Of a DNA stretch of 64,000 nucleotides, positions 6,174 to 19,302 are shown one piece after another; positions within the stretch are counted from its first letter, which is position 1; each line of letters starts with the position of its first letter. The notes under the pieces are model-generated. The model worked only from the letters and a program-made list of their open reading frames with translations. It was not told the DNA's origin and ran no database searches. The position numbers and the translations under genes were made by a program. Source of the DNA: Escherichia coli O127:H6 str. E2348/69 (GTDB lineage: Bacteria > Pseudomonadota > Gammaproteobacteria > Enterobacterales > Enterobacteriaceae); assembly GCF_000026545.1 (NCBI RefSeq), contig NC_011601.1; one strand, 5' to 3'.

Positions 6174-7745
6174 ATGGCCAACATCGAAATCAGACAAGAA
6201 ACGCCAACTGCGTTTTATATAAAAGTTCACGACACAGATAATGTGGCAATTATTGTTAATGATAATGGCCTGAAAGCAGGAACGCGTTTTCCGGATGGGC
6301 TGGAATTAATTGAACATATTCCCCAGGGGCATAAAGTCGCATTGCTGGACATTCCGGCTAATGGTGAAATTATTCGTTATGGCGAGGTGATTGGTTACGC
6401 CGTGCGCGCAATCTCACGCGGAAGCTGGATCGACGAATCAATGGTTGTACTACCGGAAGCGCCGCCGTTACATACGCTGCCACTGGCAACCAAAGTCCCG
6501 GAACCCTTACCGCCGCTGGAAGGATACACCTTTGAGGGCTATCGCAATGCCGATGGCAGCGTGGGCACCAAAAACCTGCTCGGCATCACCACCAGCGTCC
6601 ACTGTGTGGCAGGCGTGGTGGACTACGTAGTAAAAATCATTGAACGCGATCTGCTACCGAAATACCCGAACGTCGATGGCGTGGTGGGGCTGAATCATTT
6701 GTACGGTTGTGGCGTGGCGATTAACGCACCCGCGGCAGTTGTACCTATTCGTACCATTCACAATATTTCGCTGAACCCTAACTTTGGCGGCGAAGTAATG
6801 GTGATTGGTCTGGGTTGTGAAAAGTTGCAGCCTGAACGCCTACTGACTGGAACGGATGATGTGCAAGCTATTCCAGTAGAAAGCGCCAGCATTGTCAGTT
6901 TGCAGGATGAAAAGCATGTCGGTTTTCAGTCCATGGTCGAGGATATTTTGCAGGTCGCCGAACGCCATTTGCACAAGCTGAATCAACGGCAGCGAGAAAC
7001 CTGTCCGGCTTCAGAACTGGTTGTCGGCATGCAGTGCGGTGGCAGCGATGCGTTTTCTGGCGTAACGGCAAACCCGGCGGTTGGGTATGCGTCTGATCTA
7101 TTGGTGCGCTGCGGCGCAACGGTGATGTTCTCAGAAGTCACAGAAGTGCGTGACGCGATCCATCTGCTGACACCACGCGCAGTGAACGAAGAGGTCGGCA
7201 AACGGCTGCTGGAGGAGATGGAGTGGTACGATAACTATCTCAATATGGGAAAAACCGACCGCAGCGCCAACCCTTCGCCGGGGAACAAGAAAGGCGGTCT
7301 GGCAAATGTGGTGGAGAAGGCACTCGGCTCCATTGCTAAATCGGGTAAAAGTGCAATTGTTGAAGTGCTGTCGCCCGGCCAACGCCCGACTAAACGCGGA
7401 TTAATTTACGCCGCGACGCCAGCCAGCGATTTTGTCTGTGGCACGCAACAGGTGGCTTCGGGTATCACCGTGCAAGTGTTTACGACCGGTCGTGGTACGC
7501 CGTACGGCCTGATGGCGGTACCCGTCATTAAAATGGCGACCCGCACCGAGCTGGCGAACCGCTGGTTTGATTTAATGGATATTAACGCGGGCACTATCGC
7601 TACCGGCGAAGAAACCATTGAAGAAGTGGGCTGGAAGTTGTTCCACTTTATTCTCGACGTCGCCAGCGGGAAGAAGAAAACCTTCTCGGATCAATGGGGA
7701 CTGCATAACCAGCTGGCGGTGTTTAACCCGGCACCGGTGACCTGA
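6174..7745 (+). CDS. garD: Galactarate dehydratase (523 aa)
   Basis: Translation and length match recalled GarD. Confidence 0.92.
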
Positions 7746-7760
7746 TAATTCAATTCGTAT

Positions 7761-7791
7761 TATGCCCGATAGCACACGTTTATCGGGCATA
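7761..7791. terminator. Perfect 10-bp inverted repeat (atgcccgata / tatcgggcat, 9-nt loop) between convergent garD and agaR; probable bidirectional terminator
   Basis: Read directly from the sequence; sits in the 51-bp garD-agaR intergenic gap. Confidence 0.5.
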
Positions 7792-7796
7792 TTGAG

Positions 7797-8621
7797 TCAC
7801 AGCGAAGACGCGTGATCCCCGACCAGAATCACTTCAACTCCAGCCTTTCGCAGTCCTTCCAGACTATCCGCAGGAATGCCTTCATCAACAATGATCATGT
7901 CGATACGTTGAGTATCAATGATCTTATGTAAACTGGAACGATTGAACTTACTGGAATCGGTGACCACGATGATCCGTTCCGCAACTTCGCACATCCGACG
8001 GTTTAAACGGGCTTCATCTTCATTATGCGTGCTGACGCCGCGCTCCAGATCGATCGCATCTACACCAAGAAACAGCATATCGAAGTGGTAATTTTGCAGC
8101 GATTGCTCAGCCTGATCACCGTAAAAAGATTGCGACTGACGGCGCAAATGCCCCCCGGTCATCAGCAGCTCAACGCCTTCCGCTTCCAGCAACGCATTAG
8201 CCACGTTCATACCGTTGGTCATCGCAATTACGTCAGTGTGCTTGCGCATCAGACAAGCAATCTCAAAAGTGGTGGTCCCGGAGTCGAGGATCACCCGATG
8301 ACCAGGCTGAATCAACTCAACGGCAGCTTTCGCAACGCTGCGTTTCATCGCGGTGTTCAGCGCGCTTTTATCTTCCACTGATGGCTCGACTGACGGCGTT
8401 GTGCTATCGCAGATCAACGCGCCACCATAGGCACGCACAGCGATCCCCTGCTTTTCCAGAAACGCCAGATCGTTGCGGATCGTCACAGTAGATACACCAT
8501 ACAACGCCGATAGATCATTAACTTGCACACTTCCTTGCTGGCGCAGGCGTTGAATGATCTGCTCTCGTCGCTCACTGGTGCCTGTCACTCGCTTCTCGCC
8601 TGAAGCGTCGGTATTACTCAT
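7797..8621 (-). CDS. agaR: DeoR-family repressor of the aga regulon
   Basis: Translation shows an N-terminal HTH and a DeoR-type C-terminal domain; sits divergent from kbaZ; the ORF is 274 aa and the precise start is uncertain. Confidence 0.88.
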
Positions 8622-8869
8622 AGTAAGTCCTTTCGTAAAACTTTCGTTTCATTTCGTTTTGCCTATTAACGCCTTTCTATTAAGCAAATGCAAGCCCACC
8701 TTACCCATTGGCGCAAGCTACTCTCGTTTCAGTGGCTTTCATTATGTTTCTTTTGTGAATCAGATCAGAAAACTATTATCTTTCGTTTTATTTTTATCTC
8801 ACCATGACGCAGTATCAACTGAAACAAAACGAAAGATTAATATCGCAGTAATCTGAACTGGAGAGGAAA
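8622..8869. promoter_or_regulatory. agaR / kbaZ divergent promoter region with repeated CTTTCGTTT-type motifs (candidate AgaR operators)
   Basis: Motifs seen at about 8631-8662, 8714-8722, 8779-8800 and inverted at 8822-8838; consistent with published AgaR operator repeats. Confidence 0.5.
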
Positions 8870-10150
8870 GTGAAACATCTGACAGAAATGGTGAGACAGC
8901 ACAAAGCGGGCAAAACAAATGGGATTTATGCCGTTTGTTCCGCACATCCGCTGGTGCTGGAAGCTGCAATCCGCTACGCCAGTGCAAACCAAACGCCGTT
9001 ACTGATTGAAGCAACCTCCAATCAGGTGGACCAGTTCGGCGGTTATACCGGAATGACGCCCGCCGATTTTCGCGGCTTTGTTTGTCAGCTCGCCGACTCG
9101 TTGAATTTCCCGCAGGATGCGCTGATTCTGGGTGGTGACCATCTGGGGCCAAACCGCTGGCAAAACCTGCCTGCCGCTCAGGCAATGGCCAATGCCGATG
9201 ATTTGATTAAAAGCTACGTGGCGGCAGGATTCAAAAAAATTCACCTTGATTGCAGCATGTCCTGTCAGGACGATCCGATTCCCTTAACTGATGACATCGT
9301 GGCTGAACGCGCCGCCCGTCTGGCGAAAGTGGCGGAAGAAACCTGTCTTGAACACTTTGGCGAAGCCGATCTGGAGTATGTCATTGGTACCGAAGTGCCG
9401 GTGCCTGGCGGCGCGCATGAAACCTTAAGCGAGCTGGCGGTCACCACGCCGGATGCCGCCCGCGCCACGCTGGAAGCCCATCGTCACGCTTTTGAAAAGC
9501 AGGGTCTGAATGCCATCTGGCCACGCATTATTGCCCTGGTGGTTCAACCCGGCGTCGAATTCGATCACACCAACGTTATTGATTATCAGCCCGCCAAAGC
9601 GACCGCCTTAAGCCAGATGGTCGAAAACTACGAAACGCTGATTTTCGAAGCGCACTCTACCGATTATCAAACACCGCAATCGCTGCGCCAGCTGGTGATT
9701 GACCACTTTGCCATTCTGAAAGTTGGCCCGGCGCTGACCTTTGCTCTGCGTGAAGCTCTGTTCTCTCTGGCGGCGATTGAAGAAGAACTGGTGCCAGCAA
9801 AAGCCTGTTCTGGTCTGCGTCAGGTGCTGGAAAACGTGATGCTCGACCGCCCGGAATACTGGCAAAGCCACTACCACGGTGACGGCAACGCGCGTCGTCT
9901 GGCGCGTGGTTATAGCTACTCGGATCGCGTGCGCTATTACTGGCCGGACAGCCAGATTGATGACGCTTTCGCTCATCTGGTTCGTAATCTGGCGGATTCA
10001 CCAATTCCGCTGCCGCTGATCAGTCAGTATCTGCCGCTGCAGTACGTGAAAGTTCGCTCCGGCGAGCTGCAGCCAACGCCACGGGAACTCATTATCAACC
10101 ATATTCAGGACATCCTGGCGCAGTACCACACAGCCTGTGAAGGCCAATAA
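8870..10150 (+). CDS. kbaZ: Tagatose-6-phosphate kinase-like / tagatose-bisphosphate aldolase non-catalytic subunit (426 aa, GTG start)
   Basis: Translation [27 protein letters not shown]; GGAGAGGA RBS upstream of the GTG. Confidence 0.88.
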
Positions 10151-10172
10151 GCAAAACAAAGAGGAACACGCT

Positions 10173-10646
10173 ATGCCAAATATTGTTTTAAGTCGGATTG
10201 ATGAACGCTTGATTCACGGTCAGGTCGGCGTTCAGTGGGTCGGATTTGCGGGGGCAAATCTGGTGCTGGTAGCCAACGATGAGGTTGCCGAAGATCCGGT
10301 ACAACAAAACCTGATGGAAATGGTACTGGCAGAAGGGATCGCCGTACGTTTCTGGACGCTGCAAAAAGTCATCGACAACATTCATCGCGCCGCCGATCGA
10401 CAGAAAATCCTGCTGGTTTGTAAAACACCGGCCGATTTCCTGACGCTGGTGAAAGGTGGCGTTCCGGTGAATCGCATTAACGTTGGCAATATGCACTACG
10501 CCAATGGCAAGCAACAAATCGCCAAAACGGTTTCTGTGGATGCGGGTGATATCGCAGCATTTAACGACCTGAAAGCCGCTGGGGTGGAATGCTTCGTTCA
10601 GGGCGTCCCGACAGAGCCTGCTGTGGACCTCTTTAAATTACTTTGA
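10173..10646 (+). CDS. agaV: PTS N-acetylgalactosamine-specific IIB component (157 aa)
   Basis: Translation MPNIVLSRIDERLIHGQVG (mannose-family IIB); AGAGGA RBS; the upstream 12-codon extension in the track is rejected. Confidence 0.88.
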   Translation: MPNIVLSRIDERLIHGQVGVQWVGFAGANLVLVANDEVAEDPVQQNLMEMVLAEGIAVRFWTLQKVIDNIHRAADRQKILLVCKTPADFLTLVKGGVPVNRINVGNMHYANGKQQIAKTVSVDAGDIAAFNDLKAAGVECFVQGVPTEPAVDLFKLL

Positions 10647-10656
10647 GGGATTCATC

Positions 10657-11442
10657 ATGGAAATCAGTCTGTTGCAGGCATTTGCGTTGGGCATTATCGC
10701 CTTTATCGCTGGCCTGGATATGTTTAACGGCTTAACCCATATGCACCGCCCGGTGGTCCTCGGCCCGTTGGTCGGACTGGTACTTGGCGATCTGCATACC
10801 GGTATTTTAACCGGCGGTACGCTGGAACTGGTGTGGATGGGGCTGGCCCCGCTGGCAGGCGCACAACCGCCTAACGTGATTATCGGTACTATCGTCGGCA
10901 CGGCGTTTGCCATTACTACTGGCGTGAAACCCGATGTCGCGGTCGGTGTCGCCGTACCTTTCGCTGTCGCAGTACAGATGGGGATTACCTTCCTGTTCTC
11001 GGTGATGTCCGGCGTGATGTCCCGATGCGACCGGATGGCGGAGAACGCCGATACTCGCGGCATTGAACGCGTGAACTATCTGGCACTGCTGGCACTCGGC
11101 ACTTTCTATTTTCTCTGCGCTTTCCTGCCTATCTACTTCGGCGCGGAACATGCAAAAACCATCATTGATGTCCTGCCGCAACGATTAATCGACGGCCTCG
11201 GCGTCGCGGGCGGCATCATGCCAGCAATCGGTTTTGCCGTGCTGCTGAAAATCATGATGAAAAACGTCTACATCCCCTACTTCATCCTGGGCTTTGTTGC
11301 CGCAGCCTGGCTCAAGTTACCGGTGCTGGCTATTGCTGCCGCTGCGCTGGCGATGGCGATGGCGCTCATCGACCTGCTGCGTAAATCTCCTGAACCGACT
11401 CAACCTGCGGCACAGAAAGAGGAATTTGAAGATGGCATCTAA
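10657..11442 (+). CDS. agaW: PTS N-acetylgalactosamine-specific IIC component, full length (261 aa)
   Basis: Polytopic mannose-family IIC translation; uninterrupted frame. Confidence 0.85.
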   Translation: MEISLLQAFALGIIAFIAGLDMFNGLTHMHRPVVLGPLVGLVLGDLHTGILTGGTLELVWMGLAPLAGAQPPNVIIGTIVGTAFAITTGVKPDVAVGVAVPFAVAVQMGITFLFSVMSGVMSRCDRMAENADTRGIERVNYLALLALGTFYFLCAFLPIYFGAEHAKTIIDVLPQRLIDGLGVAGGIMPAIGFAVLLKIMMKNVYIPYFILGFVAAAWLKLPVLAIAAAALAMAMALIDLLRKSPEPTQPAAQKEEFEDGI

Positions 11443-12310
11443 TCAAACCACCCTGCCGAACGTCAGCGAAAATGAAGAAACACTGCTGACTGGCGTCAAT
11501 GAAAACGTGTATGAAGATCAGAGCATTGGCGCGGAGCTGACGAAAAAAGATATCAACCGCGTCGCCTGGCGTTCCATGTTGTTACAGGCTTCTTTCAACT
11601 ACGAACGTATGCAGGCTTCCGGCTGGCTGTACGGCCTGCTGCCAGCACTGAAAAAGATCCACACTAATAAACGCGACCTGGCGCGCGCTATGAAGGGGCA
11701 TATGGGTTTCTTCAATACCCATCCGTTTCTGGTGACGTTTGTTATCGGCATTATCCTTGCGATGGAGCGTTCTAAGCAGGACGTTAACAGTATTCAGAGC
11801 ACCAAAATTGCCGTCGGTGCGCCGCTCGGCGGGATTGGCGATGCGATGTTCTGGCTAACGCTACTGCCGATTTGTGGCGGGATTGGTGCAAGCCTCGCGC
11901 TACAAGGCTCTATTCTTGGCGCTGTCGTCTTTATTGTGCTGTTCAACGTGGTACACCTGGGGCTGCGTTTTGGTCTGGCGCATTATGCTTACCGCATGGG
12001 CGTGGCGGCGATTCCACTCATTAAAGCGAATACCAAAAAAGTCGGCCATGCTGCGTCTATCGTTGGGATGACGGTAATCGGCGCGCTGGTGGCAACCTAT
12101 GTTCGTTTAAGCACCACGCTGGAAATCACAGCGGGCGACGCAGTGGTTAAGTTACAGGCTGATGTTATCGACAAACTGATGCCTGCCTTCTTACCGCTGG
12201 TCTACACCCTGACCATGTTCTGGCTGGTACGCCGCGGCTGGAGTCCGCTGCGCCTGATTGCAGTGACCGTGGTTCTCGGCATCGTCGGTAAATTCTGCCA
12301 TTTCCTTTAA
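11432..12310 (+). CDS. agaE: PTS N-acetylgalactosamine-specific IID component (292 aa)
   Basis: Translation from MASNQTTLPNVSENEE; the ATG overlaps the agaW stop by 11 nt (translational coupling). Confidence 0.85.
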   Translation: MASNQTTLPNVSENEETLLTGVNENVYEDQSIGAELTKKDINRVAWRSMLLQASFNYERMQASGWLYGLLPALKKIHTNKRDLARAMKGHMGFFNTHPFLVTFVIGIILAMERSKQDVNSIQSTKIAVGAPLGGIGDAMFWLTLLPICGGIGASLALQGSILGAVVFIVLFNVVHLGLRFGLAHYAYRMGVAAIPLIKANTKKVGHAASIVGMTVIGALVATYVRLSTTLEITAGDAVVKLQADVIDKLMPAFLPLVYTLTMFWLVRRGWSPLRLIAVTVVLGIVGKFCHFL

Positions 12311-12327
12311 ATACAATGAGGTATTAG

Positions 12328-12762
12328 ATGTTAAGTATTATTTTGACAGGGCATGGCGGATTTGCCAGCGGCATGGAAAAAGCAATGAAGCAAATTCTCG
12401 GTGAGCAATCGCAGTTTATCGCCATCGATTTTCCGGAAACCTCAAGCACCGCGCTGCTTACATCGCAGCTTGAAGAGGCCATCGTCCAACTGGATTGTGA
12501 AGACGGCATTGTTTTTCTGACGGATTTGCTGGGCGGCACGCCGTTTCGCGTAGCTTCAACGCTGGCGATGCAAAAACCGGGCTGTGAAGTGATCACAGGG
12601 ACCAATTTACAACTGCTACTGGAGATGGTGCTGGAACGCGAAGGGTTAAGCGGTGAAGAGTTTCGTGTGCAGGCGCTGGAGTGTGGACACCGTGGGCTAA
12701 CCAGTCTGGTGGACGAACTTGGTCGCTGCCATGAGGAATGTCCGGTCGAGGAAGGAATATGA
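12328..12762 (+). CDS. agaF: PTS IIA component of the aga system (144 aa)
   Basis: Mannose-family IIA translation (MLSIILTGHGGFASG). Confidence 0.85.
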   Translation: MLSIILTGHGGFASGMEKAMKQILGEQSQFIAIDFPETSSTALLTSQLEEAIVQLDCEDGIVFLTDLLGGTPFRVASTLAMQKPGCEVITGTNLQLLLEMVLEREGLSGEEFRVQALECGHRGLTSLVDELGRCHEECPVEEGI

Positions 12763-13892
12763 CACACGTTCTGCGCGCCAGAAGGCTGCTGACTGAAGAG
12801 GGATGGTTCGATAACCATCAGTTGCGTATTGCTGACGGTGTAATCGCAGCAATCGAACCGATTCCAGTGGGCGTGACTGAACGCGATGCGGAACTGCTCT
12901 GCCCCGCTTACATCGACACCCATGTACACGGTGGTGCGGGCGTTGATGTAATGGATGACGCGCCGGATGCGCTCGACAAGCTGGCAATGCACAAAGCACG
13001 CGAAGGTGTCGGCAGTTGGTTACCGACCACCGTAACCGCGCCGCTTAATACCATTCATGCGGCGCTGGAACGTATTGCTCAACGTTGCCAACGCGGCGGA
13101 CCTGGTGCTCAAATACTGGGGAGTTATCTCGAAGGACCGTACTTCACGCCGCAGAATAAAGGCGCGCATCCGCCGGAGCTGTTTCGCGAGCTGGAAATTG
13201 CCGAGCTGGATCAATTGATTGCCGTTTCTCAGCACACCTTGCGCGTGGTGGCGCTGGCACCGGAAAAAGAAGGGGCATTGCAGGCCATCCGCCATCTTAA
13301 ACAGCAAAACGTAAGGGTGATGCTGGGGCATAGCGCGGCGACCTGGCAACAAACCCGCGCCGCGTTTGATGCTGGTGCCGACGGCCTGGTGCATTGCTAT
13401 AACGGGATGACAGGTTTACATCACCGCGAACCGGGAATGGTTGGCGCGGGATTAACGGACAAGCGCGCCTGGCTGGAACTGATAGCCGATGGTCATCATG
13501 TGCATCCGGCGGCGATGTCGCTGTGTTGTTGCTGTGCGAAAGAGAGAATCGTGCTGATCACCGACGCGATGCAGGCAGCCGGGATGCCGGATGGTCGCTA
13601 TACGTTATGTGGCGAAGAAGTGCAGATGCACGGTGGCGTTGTCCGTACCGCGTCCGGTGGGCTGGCGGGCAGTACGCTGTCTGTCGATGCGGCAGTGCGC
13701 AACATGGTCGAGTTGACGGGCGTAACGCCTGCGGAAGCCATCCATATGGCGTCGCTGCATCCGGCGCGTATGCTGGGTGTTGATGATGTTCTGGGATCGC
13801 TTAAACCGGGCAAACGCGCCAGCGTCGTTGCGCTGGATAGCGGGCTGCATGTGCAACAAATCTGGATTCAGGGTCAATTAGCTTCGTTTTGA
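12759..13892 (+). CDS. agaA: N-acetylgalactosamine-6-phosphate deacetylase, full length (377 aa)
   Basis: Translation from MTHVLRARRLLTEEGW, NagA-like amidohydrolase; ATGA overlap with the agaF stop. Confidence 0.85.
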   Translation: MTHVLRARRLLTEEGWFDNHQLRIADGVIAAIEPIPVGVTERDAELLCPAYIDTHVHGGAGVDVMDDAPDALDKLAMHKAREGVGSWLPTTVTAPLNTIHAALERIAQRCQRGGPGAQILGSYLEGPYFTPQNKGAHPPELFRELEIAELDQLIAVSQHTLRVVALAPEKEGALQAIRHLKQQNVRVMLGHSAATWQQTRAAFDAGADGLVHCYNGMTGLHHREPGMVGAGLTDKRAWLELIADGHHVHPAAMSLCCCCAKERIVLITDAMQAAGMPDGRYTLCGEEVQMHGGVVRTASGGLAGSTLSVDAAVRNMVELTGVTPAEAIHMASLHPARMLGVDDVLGSLKPGKRASVVALDSGLHVQQIWIQGQLASF

Positions 13893-14039
13893 TGGTTTGC
13901 TCCTTTATTGGGCCTTCACTTCCCCCGTAAGACCTTTCTTTTTCTTTCGTTGTGCTCTGTGCAGGGTATCGGATGCGACGCTGACGCGTCTTCTTTGACC
14001 TACGGTACGCCGCATCCGGCAATCGGTGCACATAGCGAC

Positions 14040-14240
14040 GTCATCACGCAATCCTTTAATCTTCCCTTGTCTTTTCTTTCAATGATCACAAATTTCGGTT
14101 TATTTCTTTTTTCTCCGTTGAACTTTCAGTTTCTTTTCTATAGATTTTAATCAACGAAAGAAATCACCAAGTGAAATGAAACGAAAGGCAAGCGAAAGCG
14201 ACAACGCCGACGTCAAGTTCATCAGACTAAGGATTGAGTT
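14040..14240. promoter_or_regulatory. agaS promoter region with repeated TTTCGGTTT / TTTCAGTTT / CGAAAG motifs (candidate AgaR operators)
   Basis: Same motif family as in the agaR-kbaZ region, clustered immediately upstream of agaS. Confidence 0.45.
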
Positions 14241-15395
14241 ATGCCAGAAAATTACACCCCTGCTGCTGCCGCAACCGGTACATGGACTGAAGAAGAGATC
14301 CGCCATCAGCCTCGCGCATGGATCCGTTCACTCACCAACATCGACGCGCTACGTTCCGCGCTCAATAACTTCCTTGAACCGTTACTGCGCAAAGAGAATC
14401 TGCAAATCATCCTGACCGGAGCCGGAACCTCGGCATTTATCGGCGACATCATCGCGCCGTGGCTCGCCAGCCATACCGGTAAAAACTTCAGCGCCGTACC
14501 AACCACCGATCTGGTCACCAATCCAATGGACTACCTGCACCCAGCTCATCCGCTACTGTTGATCTCCTTCGGTCGATCCGGCAACAGCCCGGAAAGCGTC
14601 GCCGCCGTGGAACTGGCAAATCAATTTGTACCAGAATGCTATCACCTGCCGATCACCTGCAACGAAGCGGGCGCTCTTTACCAAAACGCGATCAACAGCG
14701 ACAACGCGTTTGCCCTGCTGATGCCCGCAGAAACGCACGATCGCGGCTTCGCGATGACCAGCAGCATTACCACCATGATGGCCAGCTGCCTCGCGGTTTT
14801 CGCACCTGAGATGATCAACAGCCAAACCTTCCGCGACGTGGCGGATCGTTGCCAGGCGATCCTGACCTCACTGGGCGATTTCAGCGAAGGTGTGTTTGGT
14901 TACGCACCGTGGAAACGGATCGTTTATCTCGGCAGCGGTGGCTTACAGGGCGCAGCACGCGAGTCGGCGCTGAAAGTACTGGAACTGACAGCGGGTAAAC
15001 TGGCGGCCTTCTATGATTCCCCGACCGGATTCCGTCATGGCCCGAAATCGCTGGTCGATAACGAAACGCTGGTGGTGGTATTTGTCTCCAGCCACCCTTA
15101 CACCCGTCAGTATGATCTTGATCTGCTGGCAGAACTCCGCCGCGATAACCAGGCAATGCGCGTAATCGCCATCGCCGCGGAAAGCAACGACGTTATTGCC
15201 GCCGGTCCACATATCATCCTGCCGCCGTCCCGTCACTTTATCGACGTTGAGCAGGCATTTTGCTTCCTGATGTACGCCCAGACATTTGCACTGATGCAGT
15301 CGCTGCACATGGGTAATACGCCGGATACCCCATCAGCCAGTGGCACCGTTAACCGCGTGGTGCAAGGCGTAATCATTCATCCGTGGCAGGCATAA
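14241..15395 (+). CDS. agaS: Galactosamine-6-phosphate deaminase/isomerase, SIS-domain protein (384 aa)
   Basis: Translation and length match recalled AgaS. Confidence 0.9.
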   Translation: MPENYTPAAAATGTWTEEEIRHQPRAWIRSLTNIDALRSALNNFLEPLLRKENLQIILTGAGTSAFIGDIIAPWLASHTGKNFSAVPTTDLVTNPMDYLHPAHPLLLISFGRSGNSPESVAAVELANQFVPECYHLPITCNEAGALYQNAINSDNAFALLMPAETHDRGFAMTSSITTMMASCLAVFAPEMINSQTFRDVADRCQAILTSLGDFSEGVFGYAPWKRIVYLGSGGLQGAARESALKVLELTAGKLAAFYDSPTGFRHGPKSLVDNETLVVVFVSSHPYTRQYDLDLLAELRRDNQAMRVIAIAAESNDVIAAGPHIILPPSRHFIDVEQAFCFLMYAQTFALMQSLHMGNTPDTPSASGTVNRVVQGVIIHPWQA

Positions 15396-16268
<873 letters not shown>

Positions 16269-16434: not shown

Positions 16435-16911
16435 ATGAGCAGTCCAAATATTCTCTTAACCCGTATTGATAACCGTCTGGTTCACGGTCAGGTTGGCGTG
16501 ACCTGGACATCCACCATCGGTGCAAATCTGCTGGTAGTCGTGGATGATGTTGTCGCTAACGATGATATTCAACAGAAATTAATGGGTATTACCGCGGAAA
16601 CCTACGGCTTTGGCATTCGTTTCTTTACTATCGAAAAAACCATTAACGTCATCGGCAAAGCTGCACCGCATCAGAAGATCTTCCTGATTTGCCGCACGCC
16701 ACAAACGGTACGTAAATTGGTAGAAGGTGGCATTGACCTGAAAGATGTCAACATCGGCAATATGCATTTCTCGGAAGGGAAAAAGCAAATCAGCAGTAAA
16801 GTTTATGTCGATGACCAGGATCTCACGGACTTACGTTTTATTAAACAACGTGGCGTGAATGTTTTCATTCAGGACGTCCCTGGCGATCAAAAAGAACAAA
16901 TCCCTGACTAA
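16435..16911 (+). CDS. agaB: PTS galactosamine-specific IIB component (158 aa)
   Basis: Mannose-family IIB translation, paralogous to agaV. Confidence 0.9.
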   Translation: MSSPNILLTRIDNRLVHGQVGVTWTSTIGANLLVVVDDVVANDDIQQKLMGITAETYGFGIRFFTIEKTINVIGKAAPHQKIFLICRTPQTVRKLVEGGIDLKDVNIGNMHFSEGKKQISSKVYVDDQDLTDLRFIKQRGVNVFIQDVPGDQKEQIPD

Positions 16912-16949: not shown

Positions 16950-17753
16950 ATGCATGAAATAACCCTACTCCAGGGATTATCCCTGGCGGCGTTAGTTTTC
17001 GTTCTGGGGATTGATTTTTGGCTGGAAGCCTTATTTTTATTCCGCCCGATAATCGTTTGTACCCTTACAGGTGCTATTCTCGGTGATATTCAGACTGGCT
17101 TAATTACCGGTGGCCTGACAGAGTTGGCTTTCGCCGGATTAACCCCTGCAGGTGGTGTTCAGCCGCCCAACCCTATTATGGCGGGTCTGATGACCACCGT
17201 CATTGCATGGTCTACGGGCGTTGATGCCAAAACGGCAATTGGTCTTGGCCTGCCGTTTAGTTTGTTAATGCAGTACGTCATTCTGTTCTTCTATTCCGCT
17301 TTCTCATTATTTATGACCAAAGCCGATAAATGCGCGAAAGAGGCGGATACGGCAGCGTTTTCCCGACTTAACTGGACAACGATGCTCATCGTTGCTTCAG
17401 CGTATGCGGTGATTGCTTTCCTCTGTACTTACCTGGCACAGGGGGCGATGCAGGCGCTGGTGAAAGCGATGCCCGCCTGGCTGACCCACGGCTTTGAAGT
17501 GGCTGGCGGTATTCTGCCTGCCGTTGGTTTTGGCTTGCTGCTGCGCGTAATGTTCAAAGCGCAATATATCCCTTACCTGATCGCCGGTTTCCTGTTCGTT
17601 TGCTACATCCAGGTCAGCAACCTGTTGCCGGTTGCCGTGTTGGGCGCAGGCTTTGCGGTGTATGAGTTTTTCAATGCGAAATCCCGGCAGCAAGCGCAAC
17701 CGCAGCCCGTTGCCAGTAAAAATGAAGAAGAGGACTACAGCAATGGGATCTGA
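16950..17753 (+). CDS. agaC: PTS galactosamine-specific IIC component (267 aa)
   Basis: Polytopic IIC translation. Confidence 0.9.
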   Translation: MHEITLLQGLSLAALVFVLGIDFWLEALFLFRPIIVCTLTGAILGDIQTGLITGGLTELAFAGLTPAGGVQPPNPIMAGLMTTVIAWSTGVDAKTAIGLGLPFSLLMQYVILFFYSAFSLFMTKADKCAKEADTAAFSRLNWTTMLIVASAYAVIAFLCTYLAQGAMQALVKAMPAWLTHGFEVAGGILPAVGFGLLLRVMFKAQYIPYLIAGFLFVCYIQVSNLLPVAVLGAGFAVYEFFNAKSRQQAQPQPVASKNEEEDYSNGI

Positions 17754-18534
17754 AATCAGTAAAAAAGATATCACCCGTCTGGGCTTTCGTTCGTCACTGC
17801 TACAAGCAAGCTTTAACTACGAAAGGATGCAGGCGGGCGGTTTTACCTGGGCGATGTTGCCGATCCTGAAAAAGATTTATAAGGACGACAAACCGGGCCT
17901 AAGCGCGGCGATGAAAGATAACCTCGAATTTATTAATACCCACCCTAATCTGGTCGGATTCCTGATGGGGTTATTAATTTCGATGGAAGAAAAAGGAGAA
18001 AACCGCGACACCATTAAAGGCCTCAAAGTGGCGCTGTTTGGCCCAATCGCCGGGATTGGCGATGCGATTTTCTGGTTTACCTTGTTGCCAATTATGGCGG
18101 GGATTTGCTCATCGTTTGCCAGTCAGGGGAACCTGTTGGGGCCGATTCTATTTTTCGCCGTTTACCTGCTTATCTTCTTCCTGCGCGTCGGCTGGACCCA
18201 CGTCGGTTATTCAGTCGGCGTGAAGGCGATCGATAAAGTGCGAGAGAACTCGCAGATGATTGCTCGTTCGGCAACCATCCTCGGGATCACGGTAATCGGC
18301 GGGCTGATCGCTTCGTATGTGCATATTAACGTGGTGACATCGTTTGCCATCGACAGTACCCACAGCGTCGCGCTGCAGCAGGATTTCTTCGATAAAGTCT
18401 TCCCGAACATTTTACCGATGGCCTACACCCTGTTGATGTATTACTTCCTGCGGGTGAAAAAAGCGCATCCGGTGCTGTTAATCGGCGTGACTTTTGTGCT
18501 CTCTATTGTTTGTTCTGCATTCGGCATTTTGTAA
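17743..18534 (+). CDS. agaD: PTS galactosamine-specific IID component (263 aa)
   Basis: Translation from MGSEISKKDITRLGFRS; overlaps the agaC stop by 11 nt. Confidence 0.88.
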   Translation: MGSEISKKDITRLGFRSSLLQASFNYERMQAGGFTWAMLPILKKIYKDDKPGLSAAMKDNLEFINTHPNLVGFLMGLLISMEEKGENRDTIKGLKVALFGPIAGIGDAIFWFTLLPIMAGICSSFASQGNLLGPILFFAVYLLIFFLRVGWTHVGYSVGVKAIDKVRENSQMIARSATILGITVIGGLIASYVHINVVTSFAIDSTHSVALQQDFFDKVFPNILPMAYTLLMYYFLRVKKAHPVLLIGVTFVLSIVCSAFGIL

Positions 18535-19302
18535 ATGGAACGAGGCACTGCGTCTGGTGGTGCCTCTTTACTAAAGGAATTTCATCCTGTGCAACCCCTT
18601 CAACAAGTTGAAAACTATACGGCGTTAAGTGAACGTGCCAGCGAATATTTATTGGCCGTGATCCGTAGCAAACCGGATGCCGTGATTTGCCTGGCGACCG
18701 GAGCCACGCCATTACTGACGTATCATTATCTGGTAGAAAAAATCCAGCAGCAGCAGGTTGATGTCAGCCAGCTCACCTTCGTCAAGCTCGACGAATGGGT
18801 GGATCTGCCATTAACGATGCCTGGTACCTGCGAAACTTTCCTTCAACAGCATATCGTGCAGCCGCTGGGGCTACGTGAAGACCAGCTCATCAGCTTTCAC
18901 TCCGAAGAGATAAATGAGACAGAGTGCGAACGGGTAACGAACCTGATTGCGCGCAAAGGCGGTCTGGATTTATGCGTTCTCGGATTGGGGAAAAACGGTC
19001 ATCTTGGGCTGAACGAACCGGGAGAAATCCTGCAACCGGCCTGCCATATCAGTCAACTTGATGCCAGAACACAGCAACATGAGATGTTAAAAACCGCGGA
19101 CCGTCCCGTGACTCGTGGGATCACCTTAGGCCTGAAGGATATTCTCAATGCCAGCGAAGTTTTGTTACTGGTGACTGGCGAAGGAAAACAGGATGCGACA
19201 GAACGTTTTCTCACGGCTAAAGTCTCCACCGCTATCCCGGCTTCATTTTTATGGCTGCATAACTATTTCACATGCATGATTGATGAAATGTGTCGTCGTT
19301 AA
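18535..19302 (+). CDS. agaI: Putative galactosamine-6-phosphate deaminase/isomerase, NagB-like (255 aa)
   Basis: NagB/6-phosphogluconolactonase-like translation; ATG directly abuts the agaD stop. Confidence 0.85.
   Translation: MERGTASGGASLLKEFHPVQPLQQVENYTALSERASEYLLAVIRSKPDAVICLATGATPLLTYHYLVEKIQQQQVDVSQLTFVKLDEWVDLPLTMPGTCETFLQQHIVQPLGLREDQLISFHSEEINETECERVTNLIARKGGLDLCVLGLGKNGHLGLNEPGEILQPACHISQLDARTQQHEMLKTADRPVTRGITLGLKDILNASEVLLLVTGEGKQDATERFLTAKVSTAIPASFLWLHNYFTCMIDEMCRR

Follow-up and report, generated by a model that had tools for sequence, protein, structure and literature searches.

The arrays of CTTTCGTTT-type motifs between agaR and kbaZ and upstream of agaS in E. coli O127:H6 E2348/69 are, with high confidence, operator sites for the DeoR/GlpR-family repressor AgaR, whose gene occupies 7797–8621 of the window (the 64,000-nucleotide stretch of DNA that was analysed, to which all positions refer). 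This assignment is drawn from the sequence and from its conservation. A first-pass annotation had read the arrays as a multi-operator set of AgaR, and matches to the AgaR consensus, identity with K-12, and published AgaR binding at three promoters bear it out. The operator set is already in the literature, and the finding is thus correct but ordinary, a rediscovery. The genes behind these operators allow E. coli to use two gut sugars, N-acetylgalactosamine (GalNAc) and galactosamine (GalN).

AgaR and its published target promoters

AgaR consists of an HTH_DeoR domain (residues 18–74) and a DeoRC domain (residues 89–247), as assigned by Pfam. The protein shares 267 of 269 residues with AgaR from K-12; the HTH is identical, as are residues 1–122. 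The agaR–kbaZ region is 99% identical to that of K-12; four differences separate the two, none of them within a box. Upstream of agaS, the operator part is also nearly identical to K-12, with differences in the boxes only at 14098 (T to G) and at one base at 14162. The K-12 operators at the promoters of agaR (P_R), kbaZ (P_Z), and agaS (P_S) are the closest known system, with the same locus, a repressor of identical HTH, and the same consensus matches.

AgaR binds the promoters upstream of agaR, kbaZ (agaZ), and agaS (PMC3668189, citing Ray & Larson 2004, Mol Microbiol 51:813). GalNAc induces P_Z and P_S, GlcNAc does not, and deletion of agaR renders agaA and agaS constitutive (PMC3668189). 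Loss of agaR function likewise leads to higher agaV expression in E. coli C (PMC9628945). The published cases of derepression by GalNAc or GalN, or by loss of agaR, come from strains other than E2348/69, namely E. coli C, EDL933, and K-12 fusions; which compound acts as the physiological inducer is still regarded as unclear (PMC4694137).

E. coli possesses many DeoR-family paralogues, and the boxes might in principle be bound mainly by one of these (GatR or GlpR) or by NagC, with AgaR acting only indirectly. We consider this most improbable. In 73 loci, the motif always lies at a fixed distance from agaR, the literature reports direct binding by AgaR, and a synthetic promoter that carries an isolated site is repressed in an AgaR-dependent manner; the lack of induction by GlcNAc also speaks against another regulator (PMC3668189).

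Organization of the aga locus

The window matches E. coli O127:H6 E2348/69 with 100% identity (7700–9000 compared). We followed the RefSeq/PGAP annotation of this strain for the gene map, in which the locus coordinate equals the window position plus 4301. On the plus strand, garD (6174–7745) is followed by the oppositely oriented agaR (7797–8621, minus strand, 274 amino acids; PGAP annotation). The first operon comprises kbaZ (8870–10150), agaV (10173–10646), agaW (10657–11442), agaE (11432–12310), agaF (12328–12762), and agaA (12759–13892, named nagA by PGAP). The second operon, agaS-kbaY-agaBCDI, begins with agaS (14241–15395, plus strand) and continues with kbaY (15408–16268), agaB (16435–16911), agaC (16950–17753), agaD (17743–18534), and agaI (18535–19302), after which rsmI lies on the minus strand. 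The RefSeq annotation agrees with the gene names given in the first-pass annotation for agaR, kbaZ, agaVWEF, agaA, agaS, and the rest. AgaS acts as a GalN-6-P deaminase/isomerase, and its promoter P_S has been described (PMC3668189).

Two segments known from K-12 are missing at the borders of this locus. The prlF-yhaV toxin–antitoxin module, which occupies the garD/agaR gap in K-12, is absent at 7745–7797, and because of this absence the C terminus of AgaR is five residues longer than in K-12 (...VGDHASSL). The yraH-J fimbrial operon, which follows agaI in K-12, is also missing, and rsmI directly follows agaI in E2348/69.

All 13 of 13 aga reading frames are open, and their proteins align over the full length with orthologues. 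The annotation carries no pseudogene flags in the aga cluster of E2348/69, whereas agaW and agaA are annotated as pseudogenes in K-12, which matches the 2.3-kb deletion in the K-12 aga cluster (PMC3668189); agaW, agaE, agaF, and agaA are intact in E2348/69. The agaVWEF-agaA block is thus intact, as had been claimed. Furthermore, agaC and agaI are intact in E2348/69, unlike in EDL933. Residue 91 of AgaF is a glycine; in the O157:H7 of the 2006 spinach outbreak, the Aga-negative allele is reportedly G91S. The gene content of E2348/69 matches the Aga+ Gam+ type of E. coli C, and the intact frames point to a functional pathway. A literature search on the GalNAc phenotype of E2348/69 gave nothing usable.

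The agaW gene features an in-frame 6-nucleotide tandem duplication (GGCGAT GGCGAT, ∼11348–11359) that is not found in strains A25 and 042. The PTS IIC protein is thereby longer by two residues (261 amino acids compared with 259 in A25 and 042).

Clustering of the motif at the two aga control regions

The interval 8622–8869 corresponds exactly to the gap between the starts of agaR and kbaZ. Within this divergent region, TTTCGTTT occurs exactly at 8642, 8652, and 8781 (plus strand) and at 8827 (minus strand), in line with the claim of at least four copies in both orientations; a further exact copy lies upstream of agaS at 14179 (minus strand). The four words that had been quoted for a similar cluster at 14070–14200 were all found by direct reading, namely TTTCGGTTT (14093–14101), TTTCAGTTT (14124–14132), CGAAAGAAA (14155–14163), and AACGAAAGG (14180–14188).

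The bare 8-mer is not significant across the window (7 matches versus 3.8 expected; 9 of 100 shuffles reach 7). The clustering at both aga regions, however, is significant. When one mismatch to TTTCRTTT is allowed, the 248-bp agaR–kbaZ region contains 12 matches and the 348-bp agaA–agaS gap contains 11, versus 0.9 expected in each case, and neither count was reached in 300 mononucleotide shuffles of the respective region itself. Among all 250-bp windows of the 64 kb, the agaR–kbaZ and agaS-upstream regions rank first and second for TTTCRTTT-like words, with top densities of 13 and 10, followed by a third-best value of 3 and a mean of 0.66.

The 24-nucleotide AgaR consensus is reportedly WRMMTTTCRTTTYRTTTYNYTTKK, from the work of Ray and Larson in 2004. 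Searching the 64 kb for this string with up to three mismatches, a check proposed with the first-pass annotation, yielded five matches versus 0.05 expected, all of them located in the two aga regions and two of them perfect. A full-text literature search returned no match to the consensus string itself; we take the string as right because the perfect matches and the specificity of the matches support it. Each operator is a run of NTTTY units in 5-bp phase, i.e. two 10-bp direct repeats of the TTTCRTTTYR type. The sites have been called “palindromes” (PMC4694137); the boxes described here are direct repeats.

Both regions are AT-rich, with GC contents of 0.36 and 0.44, and AT-rich 250-bp windows average 1.94 matches, compared with 0.66 for the rest. 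It could therefore be argued that the T-rich repeats are AT-rich DNA of a kind common in promoters (UP-element-like tracts, for instance, or sites for nucleoid proteins such as H-NS or Fis), and that they cluster through low-GC composition. The shuffles, however, preserve the composition of the regions themselves and never reach the observed counts. In addition, the boxes keep their C and G positions base for base from Yersinia to Escherichia, whereas AT-rich spacers drift, and the consensus is almost confined to the aga promoters across 1.5 Mb of orthologous DNA. Together with the published genetics that link these promoters to AgaR, this makes a purely compositional origin hardly credible, and binding of AgaR to the boxes is the reading followed below.

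Operators and predicted promoters between agaR and kbaZ

The operator closest to agaR, O1 (AAACTTTCGTTTCATTTCGTTTTG, 8638–8661, plus strand), matches the consensus without mismatch and consists of two 10-bp direct repeats, TTTCGTTTCA followed by TTTCGTTTTG. It spans the predicted transcription start of agaR and shows a mean conservation of 0.93 at 8641–8660 (73 orthologues). An AgaR site taken from P_kbaZ has been given as CTTTCGTTTCATTT(T)CGTTT with 20 nucleotides (PMC8667592, Table S3); it corresponds to the 19-nucleotide O1 core at 8641–8659, with one extra T printed in the paper. Placed at +1 of a synthetic promoter, this AgaR site represses (PMC8667592).

We placed P_R (8665–8693, minus strand) by two conserved blocks, 8664–8681 and 8684–8696, found in 22 genera. 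The predicted promoter comprises a −35 element TTGCAT (8688–8693), a 17-nucleotide spacer, and a −10 element GTTAAT (8665–8670), with the start near 8658. Its spacer contains a conserved CCTTTCTATT box (8672–8681) with a mean identity of 0.87.

On the kbaZ side, O2 (8733–8756, plus strand; core CTTTCATTATGTTTCTTTT at 8736–8754) differs from the consensus at two positions, shows a mean conservation of 0.97, and abuts a CRP-like site (TGTGAATCAGATCAGA, 8754–8769, plus strand) with one mismatch to TGTGA-N6-TCACA. The latter is kept as TGTGAAACAGATCGGA in other genera with a mean identity of 0.84, scored as 8755–8770, i.e. one base off. By themselves, sites with one mismatch to TGTGA-N6-TCACA are not rare by chance (4 found versus 2.1 expected). 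The center of the CRP-like site would lie at about −61.5 from the predicted P_Z start, which corresponds to the geometry of a class I CRP promoter.

The predicted −10 element of P_Z is TATCAA (8813–8818, plus strand), with the start near 8823 and a weak −35 element under O3. We derived this −10 element from a conserved CAGTAT(Y)AA block and from its distance to the CRP center. O3 (CTTTCGTTTTATTTTTA, 8780–8796, plus strand) covers the predicted −35 region of kbaZ, and O4 (8815–8838, minus strand; core GAAACAAAACGAAAG at 8821–8835; three mismatches) covers the predicted kbaZ start; their mean conservation is 0.96 and 0.94, respectively. O3 and O4 form a 16-nucleotide inverted repeat with 94% complementarity that brackets the predicted core promoter.

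A consensus σ70 scan found no plus-strand promoter for kbaZ or agaS and did not call P_R. Two minus-strand candidates from the same scan, which lie far upstream of agaR, were not adopted. The promoter hexamers given here and below are weak matches, and the start sites were likewise placed through conservation alone, so that both are best read as predictions.

Operators and predicted promoter upstream of agaS

Upstream of agaS, the predicted promoter P_S (14118–14146, plus strand) comprises a −35 element TTGAAC (14118–14123), a 17-nucleotide spacer, and a −10 element TAGATT (14141–14146), with the start near 14153. OS1 (14089–14112, plus strand; core TTTCGGTTTATTTC at 14093–14106) lies upstream of the −35 element and differs from the consensus at two positions; in other genera and in other E. 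coli its sequence is TTTCGTTTTATTTC. OS2 (CTTTCAGTTTCTTTTC, 14123–14138) lies in the P_S spacer, and the ATTGAAC-TTTCGATTTCTTTTCTATAGATTT block that joins the −35 element and OS2 is conserved in ∼20 genera. OS4 (TGCCTTTCGTTTCATTTCACTTGG, 14167–14190, minus strand) matches the consensus perfectly, lies at about +14 to +37 of the predicted start, and is kept as GAAACGAAACGAAAG in ∼20 genera.

The remaining boxes are confined to fewer species. OS3 (CAACGAAAGAAAT, 14152–14164, minus strand) lies at the predicted agaS start and is of uncertain function; it is present in E. coli and E. albertii, has a similar counterpart (AACGAAAGAAAC) in Pseudocitrobacter, and is not conserved in other genera. A box at 14191–14198 is not conserved outside Escherichia.

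The conserved order upstream of agaS is GATCACA-N3-TTTCGTTTTATTTC, ATTGAAC-TTTCGATTTCTTTTCTATAGATTT, and GAAACGAAACGAAAG. Two species in which another gene directly precedes agaS provide a natural negative control, and none of the conserved blocks is found there. The GATCACA motif at 14084–14090, just upstream of OS1, is conserved in ∼20 genera and could be a CRP half-site or part of an AgaR-protected region.

The CTTTC run downstream of agaA

An intrinsic terminator follows agaA (13910–13951, plus strand), with a stem GGGCCTT.../...AAGACC and the U-tract TTTCTTTTTCTTTCG. Compensatory changes occur in all five of the five predicted base pairs of the hairpin across 16 genera, and in every genus examined a U-rich CTTTC run follows the GC-rich hairpin. 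The K-12 hairpin folds with −10.2 kcal/mol, compared with −3.5 kcal/mol for the version of E2348/69, in which the stem is broken by an A at 13932. A search against Rfam returned no known RNA element in 8400–14400.

The CTTTC boxes at 13934–13952 (CTTTCTTTTTCTTTCGTTG) lie outside the two regions named in the first-pass annotation. For these distal boxes only, one could envisage a remote AgaR site that forms a loop with the agaS promoter. Many genera have kept the T-rich CTTTC run, and a perfect 12-nucleotide inverted repeat, formed by TTTCTTTCGTTG (13941–13952) and CAACGAAAGAAA (14152–14163) at a distance of 199 nucleotides, would fit such a loop. However, the run always lies directly 3′ of the co-varying GC-rich hairpin, as in the anatomy of an intrinsic terminator, the K-12 hairpin folds with −10.2 kcal/mol, and the partner box at 14152–14164 is not conserved outside Escherichia. 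We therefore consider a remote operator unlikely and have rejected it on the evidence of the hairpin and its covariation. A better explanation for the boxes is a U-tract belonging to the agaA terminator, to which the CTTTC run is reassigned here; the inverted repeat may have arisen by chance or may mark a distal operator.

A palindromic element of the REP/BIME-like type (CGGATGCGACGCTGACGCG...CGCCGCATCCGGCA) occupies 13970–14050, between the agaA terminator and the agaS promoter, and E2348/69 and K-12 have different sequences in its second half.

Conservation of the operator geometry in Enterobacterales

We scanned one genome per species for AgaR and obtained 80 orthologous loci (1.51 Mb). These include loci from Escherichia, Citrobacter, Klebsiella, Raoultella, Enterobacter, Kluyvera, Salmonella (arizonae and diarizonae), Yersinia, Serratia, Buttiauxella, Pantoea, Mixta, and others. 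The gene order agaR <> kbaZ-agaVWEF(A)-agaS-kbaY is kept in almost all 80 loci. With up to two mismatches, WRMMTTTCRTTTYRTTTYNYTTKK matches these loci 193 times, of which 125 matches fall into the agaR–kbaZ gap, 67 lie upstream of agaS (counted within 260 nucleotides of the gene), and a single one lies elsewhere.

The length of the agaR–kbaZ gap is 245–251 bp in 71 of 73 loci. Its median identity to E2348/69 is 0.74 and very uneven along the gap: the spacer at 8697–8734 and the segment at 8838–8858 show mean values of only 0.29 and 0.51, versus 0.87–0.97 for the boxes (73 loci). The region upstream of agaS is conserved in a similarly patchy manner. The spacing between the anchor TTTTGYGA at the O2/CRP junction (8751) and the O3 core is exactly 29 bp in all 69 of 69 loci, and O3 and O4 are 50 bp apart in 61 of 69. 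The distance from the P_R −10 anchor to O2/CRP is 87–90 bp in 65 of 69 loci, while the intervening sequence is unconstrained.

These fixed distances, together with a spacer that is conserved in length and free in sequence, suggest an oligomeric repressor that binds cooperatively or bridges its sites. Such binding is known for other members of the DeoR/GlpR family.

In Citrobacter sp. NCU1, the sequence aligned to 8815–8830 contains O4 with a 20-bp CAAAA/AAAAC repeat expansion, which resembles slippage on the 5-bp repeat and places about two extra helical turns between O3 and O4.

Substitutions private to E2348/69

Two substitutions in the agaA–agaS gap occur in none of the 5,423 other complete E. 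coli genomes searched. The first, G to A at 13932, affects the agaA terminator stem; among 5,426 complete genomes, the exact 35-mer is present in three assemblies alone, all of E2348/69. The second, T to G at 14098, lies in the OS1 core and results in TTTCGGTTT instead of TTTCGTTTT; the exact 33-mer of OS1 with G14098 is found in 3 of 5,426 genomes, again all E2348/69 assemblies. The further E. coli sampled and almost all other genera have a T at position 14098, and OS1 of E. albertii also deviates from the consensus. As a whole, the agaA–agaS gap is at most 97.4% identical to any of the 5,423 other complete genomes.

Compared with the otherwise near-identical strain A25, the block from agaE to agaS (∼11400–15400) shows about 20–35 differences per kb. 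The coding sequences of agaE, agaF, agaA, and agaS carry 20–32 differences per kb and the agaA–agaS gap 34 per kb, whereas agaR, kbaZ, agaV, agaB, and agaC carry only 0–2 per kb. We rejected local selection on the agaA–agaS regulatory DNA as the default explanation because the flanking coding sequences are equally diverged from A25. The simplest reading of this 2–3% diverged block would be a recombinant import.

Both substitutions together might weaken the control of P_S by AgaR and allow transcripts from P_Z to read through into agaS-kbaY-agaBCDI, so that the second operon would be slightly rewired, but we regard this as doubtful. The changes at 13932 and 14098 may equally well be neutral passengers of the recombination block.

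Comparison with other repressors

GlpR, a member of the same family, binds several operators over core promoters of the glp regulon, including a divergent region and with a CRP site alongside, as in the aga locus. The half-sites of GlpR form a palindromic 20-bp consensus, whereas in the AgaR boxes, pentamers of the TTTCR type are repeated directly, and their sequence is unrelated. DeoR also acts through multiple separated sites in the deo operon, and its repression may bridge distant sites via an oligomeric repressor. The DeoR sites are 16-bp palindromes that lie hundreds of base pairs apart. Bridging by AgaR is only suggested, through the rigid spacing of its sites.

The streptococcal regulators AgaR, AgaR1, and AgaR2 share the name and a role in GalNAc/GalN utilization with AgaR of E. 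coli (PMC5018945, PMC4694137). However, AgaR1 and AgaR2 belong to the GntR family (PMC4694137) and are not homologous to the DeoR-type AgaR of E. coli; their operators are expected to differ from those described here.

Model for AgaR control and its implications

In the proposed mechanism, four to five boxes in the agaR–kbaZ divergent region and three to five boxes upstream of agaS would bring AgaR to the core elements of three promoters or next to them, namely P_R, P_Z (kbaZ-agaVWEFA), and P_S (agaS-kbaY-agaBCDI). At P_R, autoregulation would result from the spacer box together with O1, which would cover the start (about −2 to +18). At P_Z, O2 would adjoin the CRP site, O3 would cover the −35 element, and O4 would cover the start, with the inverted O3/O4 pair bracketing the core promoter. 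At P_S, OS1 would precede the promoter, OS2 would fall within the spacer, and OS4 would lie past the start.

Without inducer, AgaR would occupy the boxes and probably block RNA polymerase. We infer occlusion from the positions of the boxes and from the published repression by a site at +1. Growth on GalNAc or GalN would relieve repression, and P_Z would also require cAMP-CRP.

A reader working from sequence only can thus recover a real, experimentally defined operator set; nothing is added by this on the regulation by AgaR. Three by-products are of modest value: a phylogenetic footprint that resolves the three aga promoters to single bases in ∼70 Enterobacterales species and shows a very rigid geometry of operators, CRP site, and promoters; the reassignment of the CTTTC run; and the two private substitutions. 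If the two private substitutions do affect the second operon, enteropathogenic E2348/69 would show a higher basal expression of the GalN branch. Both changes are testable for an effect on amino-sugar gene expression in this gut pathogen.
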